64,000 bases of DNA from a virus (taxonomy: Duplodnaviria > Caudoviricetes). The stretch spans positions 1-64,000 of IMG/VR virus record IMGVR_UViG_3300021387_001106, one strand, 5' to 3'. Below the pieces are notes generated by a model, which did no database searches, had not been told where the DNA came from, and saw only the letters and a program-made list of their open reading frames with translations. The position numbers were made by a program, and so were the translations under genes. Each line of letters begins with the position of its first letter. The first letter of the stretch is position 1. Shown piece after piece: positions 1 through 45,578 of the stretch.

Positions 1-176
1 ATACGGCGCAACTCACGCTGTAGAGGAATGAAGGAAAACCTAAGCCTTCTAAGTTCCCGATGCTAAACTGTGTAATCGGCGCTGGATTAGATGAGAGTCT
101 GTCCTGAATGAGAAAGCTCTGCGAGAGTGAGCTTCTTGGGGTGACGCCCGGTGGAGACCGAATAGTCTATATGATT
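1..176 (+). ncRNA. 3' part of a large structured ncRNA, ROOL/GOLLD-like (5' end outside window)
   Basis: No ORF; stacked short hairpins (AGAAAGCTC/GAGCTTCT, CGGT-GGAG-ACCG, GCGA/GTGA loops); CCTAAGCCTT...TAAA..TGTAATC segment resembles my recollection of ROOL/GOLLD motifs; directly upstream of tRNA-like array. Confidence 0.45.
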
Positions 177-262
177 GCCCCTATAGTTCAATGGAAGTCG
201 ATTTAAGCATGTAGAACGCCAATGGTCTTTAGGTAATCTGGGTTCGATTCCCAGTGGGGGCG
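177..262 (+). tRNA. tRNA-like element with enlarged D-loop and disrupted anticodon arm
   Basis: Acceptor GCCCCTA/TGGGGGC, D-stem GTTC/GAAC, T-arm CTGGG-TTCGATT-CCCAG; anticodon arm does not pair properly. Confidence 0.65.
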
Positions 263-266
263 GTTA

Positions 267-350
267 TGTGTTGAAGCGATAGGTTAGAGGGAGACACCGG
301 GTCGCCAACAACGACTAAGCGTGGGTTCGAGCCCCACAGACTTCAACACA
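267..350 (+). ncRNA. tRNA-like RNA with 10-bp terminal stem
   Basis: TGTGTTGAAG/CTTCAACACA closing stem, arm GGTCG-CCAACAA-CGACT, T-arm GTGGG-TTCGAGC-CCCAC; no proper D-arm. Confidence 0.55.
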
Positions 351-389
351 TTTCAGCCTTACGTCCAAAGACTATAATAAAGTGCTGGT

Positions 390-458
390 TGCACAGTGAG
401 CAAGTGGAAGCGACCTTACGTAATAAGGTAAATGCAGGTTCGAGTCCTGTCTGTGTAA
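390..458 (+). tRNA. Atypical tRNA-like element (loop ACGTAAT, nominal GTA/Tyr, no U33, short D-arm)
   Basis: Acceptor TGCACAG/CTGTGTA, anticodon stem ACCTT/AAGGT, T-arm GCAGG-TTCGAGT-CCTGT. Confidence 0.55.
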
Positions 459-550
459 GCCGTGTTTATACATTTGGCGTTACTAAAATGTATGGGCGGG
501 TAAGTACGTAGCCAGAACAGCCGTCAGCAGAGAAACAGGTTCAGGTGAGT

Positions 551-613
551 GGGGCATGTAGCTCAAAGGGAGAGTGGTGCGCAAGATGTGGGTTCGAATC
601 CTACCATGTCCCA
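551..613 (+). tRNA. tRNA-like element lacking the anticodon arm
   Basis: Acceptor GGGCATG/CATGTCC, D-arm GCTC-AAAGGGA-GAGT, T-arm GTGGG-TTCGAAT-CCTAC; only ~12 nt between D and T arms. Confidence 0.65.
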
Positions 614-718
614 GCGGGGTTAAGAGCAAATGTGGGTAACCCAGTGAGGTGTCTGTTTACAGATACTTCAGGCCAATTATTCCCGATGTGCAGTTACCGG
701 TTTACTTTAAACCGACCA

Positions 719-808
719 GGGAGCGTAGCTCAAAAGGAAGAGCGGCTGAGACCCAACAGAGTAAGGAGCCAATCAGTATGGATACAGGTTCGAGTCCTGA
801 CGCTTCCA
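719..808 (+). tRNA. tRNA-like element with 23-nt expanded anticodon loop
   Basis: Acceptor GGGAGCG/CGCTTCC, D-arm GCTC/GAGC, anticodon stem GCTGA/TCAGT enclosing 750-772, T-loop TTCGAGT. Confidence 0.65.
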
Positions 809-838
809 ATACAGGATATGCAATAGAAAAGGAGTTAT

Positions 839-1075
839 ATGGAGAGAGAGTGGGCAATTTATGCGTCCTTTAACATCGGTGGGAAACAAATGTACGTCAT
901 GGCATTTGGACCTGCACCCCGGATATACGAAGCGCTGGGAAGCGCCAAAAGTTCCATAGCACTCGCCTACAGGGACGCAGATATGGAAAGCATAGACTTC
1001 ACATGCGCCATGGAAGTCCCATTTGAGGGAAACGGAAAGTGGTATGTCAGGGAAACGGTGGCAGAAGAATTTTGA
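839..1075 (+). CDS. Hypothetical protein
   Basis: AAGGAG RBS, 78-aa ORF between tRNA-like elements. Confidence 0.65.
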   Translation: MEREWAIYASFNIGGKQMYVMAFGPAPRIYEALGSAKSSIALAYRDADMESIDFTCAMEVPFEGNGKWYVRETVAEEF

Positions 1076-1084
1076 GATAAACAA

Positions 1085-1201
1085 GGGAACGTGGTGTAAG
1101 GGTAGCATAGAAAAAGGGAGGTCATGTCTGTGGCCTTGTCAGCAATAAATCTTAAATCGTCTGCTAAACGGTAGGTGCGGGTTCGAATCCCGCCGTTCCC
1201 A
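1085..1201 (+). tRNA. tRNA with GCT (Ser) anticodon, short variable loop and 46-nt insertion (1110-1155)
   Basis: Acceptor GGGAACG/CGTTCCC, D-stem GTGT/GCAT, anticodon arm ATCGT-CTGCTAA-ACGGT, T-arm GCGGG-TTCGAAT-CCCGC. Confidence 0.75.
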
Positions 1202-1220
1202 TTATCAAAAAAAGGAGATC

Positions 1221-2723
1221 GTGATGAACTTTGCGGAAGCAATGCGGCAGGAACATAAGTGGACTAAGACCGAGAATGGAGCAGTCGCCCTGAATACATC
1301 GGGGGATGCACTTCTCGATTTTTTTGGTACTGTTGGTGCTCTTCGTGAGGCGCCTGATACGAGGGTCACTACCCTGTTCGAGGAAGCCTATAAGGAAGAC
1401 CCGGCCATCGCCACGAAGATACTGTTCTACGCAAGGGACATCCGTGGCGACGGAGAGACGACCGGGCTCGGTGAGCGCAAGACGTTCAGGACTATCCTGA
1501 GGTACTGTGCATATCATCATCCTGAAGCCGTCCGTCCAAACCTTGACCTGGTCGGCGCGTACGGGCGCTACGACGACCTCTATGAACTGGTTGGGACTCC
1601 GCTTGAAGATGACGCCTTCAAGGCAATGAGGAAGCAGTTCGACGAGGATCTGGACAACATGTCAAAGGGGAACGTCATTTCCCTTCTCGCCAAGTGGATA
1701 AAGACTGCGGATGCTTCTTCCGCACAGACGCGGAAACTGGGAATCCTGACCGCAAATAAGTTCGGGATACCTGTATATAACTTCAAACGCATCGTGCGTG
1801 CTATGAGGAAGCACATAGGCGTAGTCGAGGGGCTGATGTCCACACAGCAGTGGGACAAGATAAAGTATCCTGATGTCCCTTCGAGAGCGATGCTGATATA
1901 CAGGAACGCTTTTATGAAGCACGATGGGATACGGTTCAACACCTTTGCCCAGAAAGCGGCAAGCGGTGAAGAGAAGATAAACTCCGCAACACTGTTCCCG
2001 TATGACATCATCGAGAAATACAGGGGCGGATGGTGTTATGGATATACGGGCGGCAACCTTGACAAGGTGCAGGAGCAGATTCTTCAGGCACAGTGGGATC
2101 AGCTCCCGAACTATGTTGAAGAGGGAACGAACGCCATCGTCATTGCAGACACATCTGGGAGCATGACCGGCAGACCCATGGATACTGCGGTGGGGCTCGC
2201 CATCTACTTTGCCCAGAGGAACACAGGAGCGTACCACGACCTGTGGATGAACTTCTCATCTGACCCGTCTTTCCAGAAGATAAAGGGGAAGACACTGAAG
2301 CAGGTCTTGAGAAACATCAATTATAACAACTGGAACGGAAGCACAAACTGCGAAGCGGCGTTCGAGCTCATCCTCGGGACTGCTGTCAAATACCGGATTC
2401 CACACGAAGAGATGCCGAAAGCACTGATTATCATTTCCGACATGGAGTTCGATTACTGTGGCGACGGGCAGTGGACGTTCTATGACCGTATGAGGGCTGA
2501 GTACAGCCAGAAGGGATATGACATCCCTACCGTCATCTTCTGGAACGTCGACAGCCGCCACGATGTTTTCCACGCGGACAAGACGCGCAAGGGCGTCATA
2601 CTCGTCAGCGGGCAGTCGGCATCTGTATTCCAACAGTTAATGGGGAGCGTCGGCATGACCCCGGTGGAGCACATGATGAAGGTGGTCAATTCAAAGAGAT
2701 ACGAACCGATAACAGTCGGTTAA
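1221..2723 (+). CDS. DUF2828 family protein (helical N-domain + C-terminal vWA; Ro60/TROVE-like architecture)
   Basis: TENGA, LLDFF, RDIRG..GLGER, GRYDDL, SLLAKW, NSATLFPYDI motifs; vWA MIDAS DTSGSM...GSTN...IISDMEFD; FWN. Confidence 0.9.
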   Translation: MMNFAEAMRQEHKWTKTENGAVALNTSGDALLDFFGTVGALREAPDTRVTTLFEEAYKEDPAIATKILFYARDIRGDGETTGLGERKTFRTILRYCAYHHPEAVRPNLDLVGAYGRYDDLYELVGTPLEDDAFKAMRKQFDEDLDNMSKGNVISLLAKWIKTADASSAQTRKLGILTANKFGIPVYNFKRIVRAMRKHIGVVEGLMSTQQWDKIKYPDVPSRAMLIYRNAFMKHDGIRFNTFAQKAASGEEKINSATLFPYDIIEKYRGGWCYGYTGGNLDKVQEQILQAQWDQLPNYVEEGTNAIVIADTSGSMTGRPMDTAVGLAIYFAQRNTGAYHDLWMNFSSDPSFQKIKGKTLKQVLRNINYNNWNGSTNCEAAFELILGTAVKYRIPHEEMPKALIIISDMEFDYCGDGQWTFYDRMRAEYSQKGYDIPTVIFWNVDSRHDVFHADKTRKGVILVSGQSASVFQQLMGSVGMTPVEHMMKVVNSKRYEPITVG

Positions 2724-2725
2724 TA

Positions 2726-2819
2726 TGGGGCACTTACAGCGAATAATAAAACCAGAAGGTTGGGAACCGGGTGGAATACCCCGGGAACTGTGGATATAAC
2801 CCACCCACAAAGTGTCCTG
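2726..2819 (+). ncRNA. CAGC(G/A)A-stem RNA element, copy 1
   Basis: TGGGGCACTT-ACAGCGAA ... AAGTGTCCTG closing stem with three internal hairpins; no ORF. Confidence 0.6.
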
Positions 2820-2829
2820 ATTCAATAAG

Positions 2830-2948
2830 GCGACCGTAGCTCAGTTGGGAGAGCGCTATATGCAACGGGTCATGCATGTGGCCCCGACAGCAACTATCGC
2901 AATCCACTTTTAATGGAGAGGTCGCGGGTTCGAGTCCCGCCGGTCGCT
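2830..2948 (+). tRNA. tRNA-Lys(TTT) with 46-nt insertion (2858-2903)
   Basis: Acceptor GCGACCG/CGGTCGC, D-arm GCTC-AGTTGGGA-GAGC; removing the insert gives anticodon arm CTCCA-CTTTTAA-TGGAG; AGGTC variable loop; T-arm GCGGG-TTCGAGT-CCCGC. Confidence 0.8.
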
Positions 2949-2951
2949 ATA

Positions 2952-3003
2952 TGGGGTGCTTGCAGCAATCATCATTCTAATGGGTTTAGAAAAAGGCATC
3001 CTG
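2952..3003 (+). ncRNA. CAGCAA-stem RNA element, copy 2
   Basis: TGGGGTGCTT-GCAGCAA ... AGGCATCCTG closing stem, internal hairpin TTCTAA/TTAGAA. Confidence 0.6.
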
Positions 3004-3020
3004 AAGAAAAGGAGAACACA

Positions 3021-3290
3021 GTGACAAACGCAGAAAAATTCCACGCCGTGTTTGGCATGTACGCCACGGAAATCTGGTCACTTCCAGAAGCTGATTTTCT
3101 GAAGTGGCTCAATGAGGCAGCCGGGACGGACAGTATTCCGAACCTTCTGGAGGATGGAACGCTGGTCGTTCCTGTCAAAGAAGGGGCAAAGGTCGGACGT
3201 GTCCTTATCGAGGAAGAAGGTACGTGTTTTGGCAGTATGTTCTACCCGGACGGGCAGGGGACTGATTGTATCGGGGAGGGTGTTGATTGA
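3021..3290 (+). CDS. Hypothetical phage protein
   Basis: AGGAG RBS before GTG 3021; upstream part of the track ORF overlaps the tRNA. Confidence 0.65.
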   Translation: MTNAEKFHAVFGMYATEIWSLPEADFLKWLNEAAGTDSIPNLLEDGTLVVPVKEGAKVGRVLIEEEGTCFGSMFYPDGQGTDCIGEGVD

Positions 3291-3472
3291 AAACGAGTAC
3301 ATACCATAAAGGCATCCCCGGGCTGGAGTGGCGGATATGGGACAAGAAGAAAAAGAGCTTCGCTTTCGGCATACGTGAGGAAACTCCCATGTTGGCCGAG
3401 GCGAGGCTTTTTCAAAAGCTCGGAGATGATGCAAGGAAATGGCGATATGAAATCAAGGGGGTAAAGAAGTGA
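3287..3472 (+). CDS. Hypothetical phage protein
   Basis: GGAGG RBS, coupled overlap. Confidence 0.65.
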   Translation: MKTSTYHKGIPGLEWRIWDKKKKSFAFGIREETPMLAEARLFQKLGDDARKWRYEIKGVKK

Positions 3473-4056: not shown

Positions 4057-4445
4057 CCTTAGGCGGATGGGCTATATTTATCATCCTTACAATATGTATC
4101 ATCGCGGTTTTTGTGGCGCTTGGCTGTTCGACCGAAAATAACGGCCTGCGTCTTCTATACGTCTTCCTGCCGATAATCCTTGTTATAGGGCTGTACGCGG
4201 TTCTCAACTGGTATTACAGCAAGACAGCGTCTGGCCTCAGGGCAATGAAATCACAGAAGTCAAACTTCACAAACGGCATTGAGCGGGAAGTGACTGTATA
4301 CGATGTCAACGGCAAAGTCATCAAACGGTATGACGGCAGGTTCGATGTTGACTACGACGATGACCGTATCATCTTCGATGATGAGAACGGGAAACGGCAT
4401 GTCATCTACTACCCGACGGGAACAGTCATTATAGATGAGAAGTGA
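4053..4445 (+). CDS. Membrane protein (2 TM) with C-terminal beta domain
   Basis: Two hydrophobic segments, AGGAG RBS. Confidence 0.75.
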   Translation: MTLGGWAIFIILTICIIAVFVALGCSTENNGLRLLYVFLPIILVIGLYAVLNWYYSKTASGLRAMKSQKSNFTNGIEREVTVYDVNGKVIKRYDGRFDVDYDDDRIIFDDENGKRHVIYYPTGTVIIDEK

Positions 4446-4451
4446 GGACAA

Positions 4452-4652
4452 ATGAGTACACATTACGAACCACTTACCCCGGAACTTCGAAGAAAAGCGC
4501 TGGATTCTATAGAACATAAGATGAAGGAACTCAACACATGCCAGTCTACCTGCTTTACCAGTATGTATATGGCCGGGTATAAGGCGGCACAGAGCATTAT
4601 CAAGGGGCTGCCTGATGGCTACCCGATGCCAATAGAAAGGAGAGGACATTGA
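4452..4652 (+). CDS. Hypothetical protein
   Basis: GAGG RBS, operon context. Confidence 0.65.
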   Translation: MSTHYEPLTPELRRKALDSIEHKMKELNTCQSTCFTSMYMAGYKAAQSIIKGLPDGYPMPIERRGH

Positions 4653-5170
4653 ACGTAACACTTCTGGAATCACCAACCGAGGAGGATTGGAAGGAGTGCA
4701 AGAGAAGGGCACTCATAACGGAGTACGGAAAAGGAATTGGCCCGATAAAGCTGCCGGGCACAGAGTGGAGGAAGAGGATACTGGAAGCGAGGCACAGCCC
4801 TATCAGATACCTGAAGTACAGCTTCCTGTTTCAGAACATCCCTTCCAACACATCAGTCCACTTGTGCCGGCACGTGCACGCACAGCCCTATGTGTCAAGT
4901 CTCCGCAATGACCGTCAGGACAAGATGGACGGCGACAAGGCTCCGAGGAATACCCCGGTCAATATGATACTGGACGTCAACGCAGAGGAACTGATGGTGA
5001 TCGCTAACAAGAGGCTTTGCAACAAGGCGTCCGCAAAGACACGGGAAGCTGTCCGCATGATGTGCGAGTGCGCGGCTGATGCCACACCAGAAATAGAACA
5101 CCTGCTCGTACCTATGTGTGAATATTGCGGCGGTGTGTGCCATGAGATGAAGCCTTGTGGGAGGAGGTGA
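4649..5170 (+). CDS. thyX: FAD-dependent thymidylate synthase-like protein (short ThyX/Thy1)
   Basis: HSPIR, HLCRH, SxRxDR, RLCNKA, C-terminal PMCEYCGGVCHEMKPCG. Confidence 0.7.
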   Translation: MNVTLLESPTEEDWKECKRRALITEYGKGIGPIKLPGTEWRKRILEARHSPIRYLKYSFLFQNIPSNTSVHLCRHVHAQPYVSSLRNDRQDKMDGDKAPRNTPVNMILDVNAEELMVIANKRLCNKASAKTREAVRMMCECAADATPEIEHLLVPMCEYCGGVCHEMKPCGRR

Positions 5171-14681: not shown

Positions 14682-16451
14682 TCATTCATAGAAAAACCGT
14701 ACGGTAATCCCGTTTTTGAACCGTATGACGGTCACCTTACCGCTTGTGATGGTGATTCTGTCGATGACCCTGTTCATGAAGTCCTTCGGGACAGAAGGCT
14801 CCAAGGCTTTTAAGATGGTGACCGGGTCTTTTGCGCTTCCGCTGAGCAGCTTGTCTACCATCAGGAGATAACTGGCTTTGCTCGCAAAGTCCTTGTCGGA
14901 GAAGTTTTCGACTTCGGGGACGGATTTTTCGAGCATGCTGTCTATCTCTGTGAGCTCGTCGAGGATACGTTTCCTCTCTATCCTATAATCCTTTTCTGCT
15001 ATCCCGTCATCGCCGTACAGGAAAAGCGACTGGAGCCTGCCGAGGGAAGATTCGAGTTTTCTTTTCCTGTCCTTCAGCATCTGGATGTCATCTGACTGGG
15101 CTCTGTTTGAAGAAGGCGGGGAGTATTCAAAGCCGGTCGTACCGGACTGGATGGCTTCAACGAATGCGTCAAGCCCCTCTATACGCAGTATACCGGATGT
15201 TCCGTTGCCCGAAAGTATCGCCTGTTCAATATCGTCAGCTGTTGTATTCCTGCCTGTGCGCCCTACGGACGTCATTACCCCGGAGATCGTGGAAAAAACA
15301 AGTGGTGCGATGGAGAGGTCGTTTACGTATTTGCTATCACACTGGGATGTCTTTCTGCGCTTTGCGGCGCAGCCGTACATGGAAGGCCGGTGCCCATCGG
15401 CACGTCTGCGGTCCTGTGTGGCTGTCATATTTGCCCCACAGTTCCCACATTGCAGAAGGCCGGCAAAGATATGGACGGCTTTGCCTGTATAGGTATCTCC
15501 CTTCTTTGGCCCTTTTCGTACGTTCCTTTTCAGCATGAAGTTCAGCCTGTCAAAACGCACATCATCTATTATGGCGGGATGGTGGTCTTCAACGTCTATC
15601 CACTCGGTGCTGTCACGCTTTGCATTGCCCTTACCATCGGAATGTACGTTGTAGCGGTAGACCCCTTTATAAAAGACATTTGTCAACAGTTTGTGTACCC
15701 CGACGGGGTTCCATGGGCGGCCAGAACGCGTGTGCAGACCCTTCCCGTTGAGCTCCTGACACACCTTCAGCAGGGATTGCTTTTCCTCATACAGGTTGCA
15801 GATGTAACGGTAGACCTCCGCCTCTTTTTCATTGACAGAGAAGGTCTTTGCCTCGGTATCCCAGTCATATCCGTAGGGGACGCGACCGCCGTTCCACTGG
15901 CCGTTGTTGGCTCTGGAAAGCATGACGGCGGTGACACGCTCCGCTGTCATCTGACGTTCGAGCTCCGCGAACACGAGGATGATCTTCAGCATCGCCTCGC
16001 CTATCGCGGTCGATGTATCGAACTGCTCATTCTTCGACACGAAAGTAACGCCTATCCGCTTTAATTCAGAGTACATGGTGGCGAAATCGAGAAGATTTCG
16101 GCTGATACGGTCGATCTTCCAGACGAGCAGGTGGGAATATTCCCCTGTCCTCAGCCTTGCCATCATGCGCTGATAAGCCGGCCTTGAGGTATCCTTACCT
16201 GAATAGCCGGGGTCTTCGAACACGTCATAATCTTTTATGCCGAGGACCAGTTCGGAATACGCGGCAAGCTCACGCCTCTGTACCTGAAGGGAATCTTTAT
16301 CAATCTGGAACTGCGTAGATACACGAATGTAAATGGCTGCTTTGTTTCGCAAAATAGTTTCCATATATCCCATCCATTTTTCCGAAAAATATGCACGGAT
16401 GGATAAGCAGCGCTTTTTGCGTGCCGGCACCCGTGCATCGTTATCGTTCAC
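14682..16451 (-). CDS. Large serine recombinase / integrase (start may be 16373 or 16364)
   Basis: AAIYIRVST catalytic motif, DRISRN, GGRVPYGY recombinase domain, zinc ribbon CGNCG. Confidence 0.95.
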   Translation of the reverse strand: MNDNDARVPARKKRCLSIRAYFSEKWMGYMETILRNKAAIYIRVSTQFQIDKDSLQVQRRELAAYSELVLGIKDYDVFEDPGYSGKDTSRPAYQRMMARLRTGEYSHLLVWKIDRISRNLLDFATMYSELKRIGVTFVSKNEQFDTSTAIGEAMLKIILVFAELERQMTAERVTAVMLSRANNGQWNGGRVPYGYDWDTEAKTFSVNEKEAEVYRYICNLYEEKQSLLKVCQELNGKGLHTRSGRPWNPVGVHKLLTNVFYKGVYRYNVHSDGKGNAKRDSTEWIDVEDHHPAIIDDVRFDRLNFMLKRNVRKGPKKGDTYTGKAVHIFAGLLQCGNCGANMTATQDRRRADGHRPSMYGCAAKRRKTSQCDSKYVNDLSIAPLVFSTISGVMTSVGRTGRNTTADDIEQAILSGNGTSGILRIEGLDAFVEAIQSGTTGFEYSPPSSNRAQSDDIQMLKDRKRKLESSLGRLQSLFLYGDDGIAEKDYRIERKRILDELTEIDSMLEKSVPEVENFSDKDFASKASYLLMVDKLLSGSAKDPVTILKALEPSVPKDFMNRVIDRITITSGKVTVIRFKNGITVRFFYE

Positions 16452-45448: not shown

Positions 45449-45519
45449 CCGCCATTAGTATATTGGATAGAACGTTCCTATCTAAGGGAAAGGGCGAGGT
45501 TCGAATCCTCGGTGGCGGT
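45449..45519 (+). tRNA. Degenerate tRNA, most similar to tRNA-Arg(TCT)
   Basis: Acceptor CCGCCAT/GTGGCGG, TGGATAGAAC D region, T-arm CGAGG-TTCGAAT-CCTCG; loop TATCTAA lacks U33. Confidence 0.55.
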
Positions 45520-45578
45520 CTCAAACGAGGAGGCGGCAAGCCTCCTTTTTCATTTTCCGAAAACAGAAGGAGTACGGA

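Follow-up and report, generated by a model that had tools for sequence, protein, structure and literature searches.

Two stand-alone small RNAs and two tRNA-shaped RNAs around the DUF2828/DUF7788 gene of the virus record IMGVR_UViG_3300021387_001106 (Duplodnaviria; Caudoviricetes) were found to carry one and the same RNA module, here called the handle, in two connectivities that are circular permutations of each other. The window that was analysed comprises positions 1 to 64,000 of this 98.6-kb (98,632-bp), approximately 96% complete phage record, and the RNA island that holds the four elements occupies bases 1-3100 on the + strand (Table 1). Across a set of over 150 related loci, the handle consists of a helix of 8-10 bp (helix A) and an unpaired ACAGCAA, which invariably follows the 3' end of one and the same strand, with a spacing of 10 nt from the end of the helix. 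In the open form, the 5' and 3' termini of a small RNA pair with each other as helix A; in the closed form, helix A is a capped hairpin that makes up an extra tRNA arm between the D and anticodon arms. The handle is probably the docking site of the DUF2828 protein, a predicted structural homologue of Ro60, and the RNAs that carry it would be the Y-RNA-like partners of that protein.

Table 1. Features of the RNA island of IMGVR_UViG_3300021387_001106
Feature	Coordinates	Strand	Details
Row of abnormal tRNA-shaped genes	177-808	+	At the start of the RNA island
tRNA-shaped RNA, anticodon GCT	1085-1201	+	No long variable arm; closed handle as extra arm between D and anticodon arms; Rfam tRNA match of 30.9 bits; 3' end 22 nt upstream of the DUF2828 start codon
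Closed handle 1	1117-1145	+	GGAGGTCATG - TC - TGTGGCCTTG - TCAGCAA; flanked by a short basal helix, AAGG/TCTT
DUF2828/DUF7788 gene	1224-2723	+	499 aa; Pfam PF11443, PF25043
Open handle RNA 1 (element 1)	2726-2819	+	5' strand TGGGGCACTT (2726-2735), ACAGCGAA (2736-2743), cargo (2744-2809), 3' strand AAGTGTCCTG (2810-2819); starts 2 nt past the DUF2828 stop codon
tRNA-shaped RNA, anticodon TTT	2829-2949	+	Closed handle between D and anticodon arms; Rfam tRNA match over 2890-2948
Closed handle 2	2865-2893	+	ACGGGTCATG - CA - TGTGGCCCCG - ACAGCAA, with GGGTCATG at 2867-2874, then CA, TGTGGCCCCG at 2877-2886 and ACAGCAA at 2887-2893
Open handle RNA 2 (element 2), minimal class	2952-3003	+	5' strand TGGGGTGCTT (2952-2961), GCAGCAA (2962-2968), 25-nt cargo, 3' strand AGGCATCCTG (2994-3003); 2-3 nt downstream of the tRNA at 2829-2949 and 17 nt upstream of the next open reading frame (GTG, 3021)

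The original prediction, made from the letters of the window alone, held that the stand-alone elements were circular permutations of the tRNA inserts, and that a single helix-plus-CAGCAA module occurred in both, with the tRNA body in the place of the variable loop. Every string that it quoted was found where it had been placed, and the compensatory change to which it pointed (CAC/GTG versus TGC/GCA) was borne out by the terminal helices of the two stand-alone elements, each of which pairs at 10 of 10 positions. RCAGC(G)AA lies directly 3' of the 5' strand of the helix in both of these elements. Both tRNA inserts read as the hairpin (G)GGTCATG-NN-TGTGGCC, followed by 2-3 nt and then by NCAGCAA.

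Relatives of these elements were drawn from four sources: nine contigs of viruses whose DUF2828 protein is 68-81% identical; a blind scan for a DNA pattern in viral contigs; a set of 80 loci from genomes, of which nearly all are Lachnospiraceae assemblies from rumen and gut; and 80 viral loci picked around distant family members. From the related loci, 65 distinct closed and 77 distinct open copies were compared position by position, the numbering of the helix starting where it is capped or open and following the strand 5' of ACAGCAA. Both forms have Y.G at position 1, an invariant G.U at position 2, U-A or G-C at position 3, G-C at position 4, R-U at position 5, and variable Watson-Crick pairs at positions 6-8, after which come 2 nt and ACAGCAA. 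The profiles of 39 closed copies with a two-nucleotide loop and of 21 open copies were identical, and pair 3 has the same two variants in either topology, as UCAUG-NN-YGUGA or UCCUG-NN-CGGGA in closed copies and as YGUGA...UCAUG or YGGGA...UCCUG in open ones. A weight matrix built from the 65 closed copies, which themselves score 31.6 bits with it, gave the open copies 28.1 bits when these were permuted versus -19.9 bits when they were not, and gave a pairing-selected background -15.8 bits; the two stand-alone elements of the window scored 22.0 and 15.2 bits. These results supported the predicted relationship between the stand-alone elements and the tRNA inserts. Since the chain is broken at the far end of helix A in the open form and inside the cargo in the closed form, the two are true circular permutations. 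The claim of a single module, with the tRNA body replacing the variable loop, also stood, as open copies enclose tRNA parts or whole tRNAs.

In the closed alignment (A2, 65 distinct rows), pairing is found in 98.3% of the cells and both partners have changed in 7 of 8 pairs; the covariation score is 0.650, versus 0.243 for shuffles and at most 0.17 for a slid partner. In the open alignment (A3, 38 rows), 100% of the cells are paired, both-side changes occur in 4 of 8 pairs, and RNAalifold recovers the terminal helix unaided. Because the alignment sets were partly chosen by pairing, the percentages of paired cells are not independent evidence. An independent check was provided by the blind pattern scan, in which only the end letters and CAGCAA were fixed and the three inner pairs were left free. 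All three inner pairs were present in 61 of the 74 matches near DUF2828 and two of the three in the other 13; the gene was absent from all 16 matches with no or one inner pair. The evidence for the helix is comparative, the folding energies of single sequences not being significant (z -0.3 to -1.5).

It could be argued that the stand-alone copies are nothing but transcription terminators or palindromic repeats of a selfish kind, and that their likeness to the tRNA inserts is a coincidence; both are stem-forming intergenic sequences, and one of them directly follows a stop codon. We consider this very improbable. Terminator-like sites were absent from the + strand at 2726-2819 and 2952-3003, where there is no U-run and the tails read ATTCAATA and AAGAAAAG, and an intrinsic terminator, as judged by a G+C-rich hairpin followed by a U-run, was rejected for both elements. 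The stems enclose cargo of up to approximately 100 nt, and coincidence does not sit well with position-specific profiles that are the same in the two forms. Covariation that includes a conserved G.U pair, together with a strict strand bias, argues against a repeat at the level of DNA, and a DNA-level palindrome was ruled out on the same two grounds.

The pattern YGKGR-N6-CAGCRA has exactly four matches in the 98,632-bp record (at 1129, 2726, 2877 and 2952), all of them on the + strand and within 1.85 kb around the DUF2828 gene, versus none when the pattern is read backwards. The recurrence of the handle is therefore greater than expected by chance, and a chance repeat was ruled out by this record-wide scan. 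In both forms, the strand opposite ACAGCAA continues after 0-3 nt into a second variable helix or a junction, so that ACAGCAA would form an asymmetric bulge between helix A and the cargo. The handle elements match no Rfam family, either in positions 1-3300 of the window at E values up to 10 or in loci L001-L009 at the gathering score.

The occurrence of the handle is closely tied to that of the DUF2828 gene. Of the 114 matches that the blind scan gave in viral contigs, 74 fell in loci with a DUF2828 homologue, and the handle was found away from the gene only in truncated loci and as chance-like matches. Under a strict test, 58 of the 80 Lachnospiraceae loci contain at least one handle, with 96 copies on the gene strand versus 3 on the opposite strand, and the copies in these loci lie mostly no more than 400 nt upstream of the DUF2828 start codon; several of the loci that were negative under the strict test carry handle variants. 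Among the positive loci, L183 of Roseburia hominis An869 and L184 of Clostridiaceae bacterium 1XD21-29 have one closed handle each. A strict scan (10-nt register, 8-9 forced pairs) had placed the handle only beside proteins at least 56% identical, a limit that was overturned by relaxed scans. Where the protein is 31-52% identical, open handles were recovered by the relaxed scan in 38 of 53 loci, CAGCAA is 2.3 times commoner on the gene strand, and closed handles inside tRNAs recur. Viral-contig scans that used the single distant proteins P0245 and P0256 as queries found nothing. The core GRCNCUU-ACAGCAA is common to all clades. The outer letters vary by clade (Y-G-K in the clade of the window, W-A elsewhere) and are the same in both topologies within a clade, which lends further support to the claim of one module and is the pattern to be expected if one clade-specific reader recognises both forms.

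Linkage of this kind might also arise if the handle were bound by another factor, such as a host RNA-binding protein, or served as a nuclease-resistant cap or a cis-regulatory leader, with DUF2828 linked to it by the synteny of tRNA clusters only. In many clades DUF2828 lies within tRNA arrays, the end of many open handles is 10-25 nt upstream of the DUF2828 start codon, and element 2 ends a similarly short distance upstream of the next open reading frame. Amoebal Class I RNAs, which are of like architecture, are directly bound by a protein of another kind, Rnp1A. We regard this explanation as unlikely, given that the end letters of the handle change along with the DUF2828 clade in both topologies, that the blind scan met handles away from the gene only in the cases described above, and that closed copies deep within tRNAs cannot serve as leaders.

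The DUF2828 protein of the window has a C-terminal vWA domain with an intact metal-ion-dependent adhesion site (MIDAS) motif, the residues of which (D309, S311, S313, T374 and D406) are invariant in an alignment of 128 sequences, and PHROG 850, the family to which the protein belongs, is labelled 'RNA-binding protein'. An AlphaFold2 model made with the same 128-sequence alignment reached a predicted local distance difference test score (pLDDT) of 95.4 and a predicted template modelling score (pTM) of 0.93. It was used in place of a first model (24 sequences, pLDDT 63), which was too poor for template modelling (TM) scores. In a Foldseek comparison of the deep-alignment model with the PDB, the top 13 matches were all Ro60/TROVE proteins over their full length (E values of 7e-9 to 3e-5, TM-scores up to 0.61), from Xenopus, human, Deinococcus and the Thermus phage phiLo, and they were followed by vWA domains alone at 1.5e-3. 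On the strength of this model, the protein is a structural homologue of Ro60, with a predicted TROVE ring and vWA domain, at the level of the fold only. Pfam assigns it to DUF2828/DUF7788 and not to TROVE, and in the ESM Atlas it matched DUF2828 clusters only. The DUF2828/DUF7788 family occurs in viruses, bacteria and plants and, when clustered at 50%, has over 6,000 representatives; no function is assigned to it in the literature that was searched.

Since the handle travels with the gene of this Ro60-shaped protein in many phages, a docking site for the protein is its most likely role, and it is from this association that we infer physical binding. The structural protein-binding site that the original prediction had proposed fits these results. 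Several points weigh against such a role. Ro60 was not found by single-sequence or profile searches of PDB sequences. The handle has neither of the published Ro-binding motifs, GGUCCGA in animals and GNCGAAN0-1G in bacteria (PMC4201824), and has instead ACAGCAA after YGKGRNNNNN (GRCNC helix). Part of the linkage could come from shared ancestry and synteny in phage tRNA clusters, 31 of the 53 distant loci having DUF2828 within a tRNA array, and some DUF2828 loci have no handle in the flanks that were examined. The direct binder that has been demonstrated for the amoebal Class I RNAs is a protein with an RNA recognition motif (RRM), the Rnp1A mentioned above, and is not Ro-like (PMC7919456). Finally, the two-nucleotide cap bars the outermost conserved 'pairs' of the closed form from both forming, and it may thus be the end letters rather than the helix that are recognised.

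The handle is built from helix A, with its conserved end letters, the asymmetric ACAGCAA bulge, and, on the side of the cargo, a helix or junction that varies. An open copy has both of its chain ends at the tip of helix A that faces away from the cargo, which may be a hairpin, part of a tRNA or a tRNA in full. In a closed copy, two nucleotides cap this tip, and the chain ends are in the cargo, at the acceptor end of a tRNA. If the handle is the docking site of the DUF2828 protein, then by virtue of the permutation the smallest unit that is recognised would be helix A with the ACAGCAA bulge, the cargo being interchangeable, and if one module is indeed recognised then both wirings should bind equally. 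The handle would in this manner tether tRNAs and tRNA mimics (anticodon loop, elbow) to the ring of the DUF2828 protein. Such a particle may present tRNA look-alikes to tRNA-directed enzymes, whether as a decoy, for protection or for quality control; feedback control of the DUF2828 gene is another candidate role.

The cargo of the open handles falls into classes by length. Minimal cargo of 24-33 nt includes that of element 2, which has no tRNA-like domain. Cargo of 33-44 nt mimics an anticodon arm, and its 7-nt loop reads, for example, CUUUUAA, CUGUUAA or CUGCUAA; cargo of 49-64 nt combines UUGG, an anticodon-arm mimic and a canonical T arm; and cargo of up to approximately 100 nt includes whole tRNAs, as at L006 2375-2483, which surrounds a tRNA-Phe at 2397-2468. 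The 66-nt cargo of element 1 contains three hairpins, arranged as UUGG, a hairpin with a 7-nt loop, and a T-arm-like hairpin, and its layout parallels that of the class with an anticodon arm and a T arm, with degenerate loops. The T-arm-like hairpin that had been proposed here (GTGG-ATATAAC-CCAC) is present at 2791-2805, where relatives carry canonical T arms, and as a T arm it is degenerate; the orthologue of element 1 in L001 has the canonical arm GGGGG-TTCAAGT-CCCCC adjoining the 3' strand.

With the inserts in place, ARAGORN misses both of the tRNAs that carry a closed handle, and the Rfam tRNA model (RF00005) aligns to part of them only. Removal of 1110-1155 (46 nt) gave an ARAGORN cloverleaf for tRNA-Ser(gct) with a 4-nt variable loop, and removal of 2858-2903 (46 nt) gave one for tRNA-Lys(ttt). 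This restoration of canonical cloverleaves is what would be expected if the handle were a processing signal, with pairing of leader and trailer in the open form allowing host or phage RNases to free an enclosed tRNA or fragment, and with the closed arm being removed as an intron-like insert. The whole tRNAs inside some open handles (L006 2375-2483) and the start of open elements 2-4 nt past tRNA 3' ends agree with such an explanation, and the conserved end letters could be marks of cleavage sites. Against it, most open cargo (an anticodon arm only, or 24-33 nt) cannot become a tRNA, an RtcB ligase was not found in the phage record, and neither a bulge-helix-bulge nor features of group I are seen in the inserts, where Rfam gave no match. 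For RNase III, moreover, a helix of 10 bp is short, and the family-wide linkage to one protein gene is left unexplained. Processing appears to us quite unlikely.

Further observations were made on the cargo and on the carriers. The tRNA-shaped RNA at 2829-2949 and its orthologue at L001 4096-4211 have the acceptor stem GCGACCG and the T arm in common and differ in the anticodon (TTT versus GGT); this change of anticodon with an unchanged acceptor stem suggests that the anticodon is not read for decoding identity. The body of 2829-2949 resembles a mycobacteriophage tRNA-Thr. Among the open handles of alignment A3, near-identical scaffolds, such as those at L012 716-777, L073 1462-1523 and L078 7238-7299, differ in little but the anticodon triplet (GCT, GTT, TTT), and from a comparison of their letters it seems to be this triplet of the mimic arm that evolves fast and is under selection. 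At L002 4100-4280, and in the same place in L003-L005 and L007-L009, a larger RNA that is conserved and is not a tRNA lies 3' of DUF2828. It contains a closed handle with 12-nt spacing, ATGCGTCATG-AT-CGTGACGCATGC-ACAGCAA, after which come the conserved blocks GGGAACGTGAG, CAATTCAAGG and GCCGTATAC-CGGC; no Rfam match was obtained for this RNA in L002 and its relatives at the gathering score.

Elsewhere in the RNA island of the window, five tRNA-shaped genes stand in a row at 177-808. Their acceptor and T arms are good, their middles are abnormal, and none of them contains a handle; the abnormalities include a 19-nt insert in the D loop (177-262), a missing anticodon arm (552-612) and a 23-nt anticodon loop (719-808). 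Between two of these tRNA mimics and inside neither, at 650-680, is the hairpin GTGTCTG-TTTA-CAGATAC followed by TTCAGGCCAA, which, going by its letters, looks like a decayed closed handle of the type found in distant clades (L281: GTGTCTG-GA-TAGACAC-CT-ACAGCAA). Upstream of the tRNA mimics, at the start of the linear record, positions 1-176 have no open reading frames and are rich in hairpins, and no Rfam match was found there at E values up to 10; this segment may continue from the other end of the genome. At 45449-45520, distant from the RNA island, ARAGORN reports a second tRNA, to which it gives no type (2-nt 'anticodon' ct). On the - strand, the window encodes a large serine recombinase at 14682-16451 (Resolvase, Recombinase and zinc-ribbon domains), which fits a temperate phage.

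If the handle is the ligand of the DUF2828 protein, the large DUF2828/DUF7788 family would gain a ligand that can be tested, and the biology of Ro60 and Y RNAs would gain a branch with a different recognition element. The mimics of the anticodon loop and of the elbow suggest a protein ring on which phages display look-alikes of tRNA, which would bear on conflicts between phage and host over tRNA.

The literature that was searched (on DUF2828, and on phage Ro60 with tRNA-like RNAs) does not describe this phage system. In bacteria and phages, Y RNAs flank the Ro60 gene; their terminal stem binds Ro60 and their interior mimics tRNA (Chen et al. 2014, PMC4201824). The handle RNAs resemble the Ro60 systems with YrlA and YrlB (RF02553; PMC4201824) in that the gene for a protein with a ring and a vWA domain adjoins small RNAs, and in that these have an end-to-end stem, a conserved element on its 5' strand and a tRNA-like interior. 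The tRNA-like domain takes the form of full cloverleaves in the closed form, and of anticodon-arm mimics, T arms and UUGG letters like those of a D loop in the open form of relatives. Unlike Y RNAs, the handle also occurs as a capped arm within complete tRNA cloverleaves. YrlA (RF02553) and Y_RNA gave no Rfam match in positions 1-3300 of the window at E values up to 10, and none in L001-L009 at the gathering score.

The original prediction had likened the two topologies to the permuted tRNA of YrlA. The analogy is apt, and is not exact for the window. In YrlA the Ro stem is at the position of the anticodon stem and the acceptor stem is closed by a loop, whereas here the closed handle is at the junction of the D and anticodon arms and the open handle stands in for the acceptor stem and is no extension of the anticodon stem. 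Cargo that is permuted as in YrlA was found in a distant relative, L262, where handle RNAs at 4187-4313 and 4644-4756 match the whole Rfam YrlA model at 32-37 bits (gathering score 69). Their cargo is in the order T arm, acceptor-like hairpin and D arm, and the handle helix aligns to the inner YrlA stem, with CACAGCAA as an insertion after the helix.

Circular permutation occurs naturally in RNAs of the tRNA type, as in permuted tRNA genes and two-piece transfer-messenger RNA (tmRNA) genes. The closed form can be compared with tRNAs that have extra arms or inserts (long variable arms, archaeal non-canonical introns, and permuted or split genes), with which it shares a complete cloverleaf once the 46 nt are removed. 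It differs from them in that the insert is at the junction of the D and anticodon arms and not in the variable region or the anticodon loop, has no bulge-helix-bulge, and is the same module that is found as free-standing RNAs.

The Class I RNAs of dictyostelids are 42-65 nt long, have a Dictyostelium upstream sequence element (DUSE) promoter approximately 60 nt upstream, and are reported to be unique to Dictyostelia (PMC7919456). Like the open handles, they have a short stem that joins the ends, CCUUACAGCAA directly after the 5' strand, a variable interior, and a 3' end in ...CUG(U) (Kjellin et al. 2021, PMC7919456). Class I sequences from the supplement of that paper, for example GGUCGUCUU-ACAGCAA...GAAGACC-UG, have the spacing and the end letters of the open handle, UGGGACGCUU-ACAGCAA...AAGCGUCC-UG, and by comparison with the supplement sequences the elements at 2726-2819 and 2952-3003 have the features of Class I: an end stem, (CCUU)ACAGCAA and an end in ...CUG. 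The Class I RNAs differ in being polymerase-driven genes of eukaryotes, for which tRNA-like cargo and a closed form are undescribed, while the handle RNAs belong to phages and prophages of Lachnospiraceae, are 52-117 nt long and are co-oriented in an operon of tRNAs and genes. It is possible, though we think it doubtful, that the handle is an ancient portable RNA tag which, in eukaryotes as in bacteria and phages, has the DUF2828 branch of the Ro60 superfamily as its reader, with the amoebal Class I RNAs as its eukaryotic members and a DUF2828-type protein as their partner. Were the handle such a tag, one arm would turn any tRNA into a partner RNA and two flanks would do the same for any tRNA fragment, and the match to the amoebal Class I RNAs could open a way to the function of these RNAs, which has been a puzzle since 2004.

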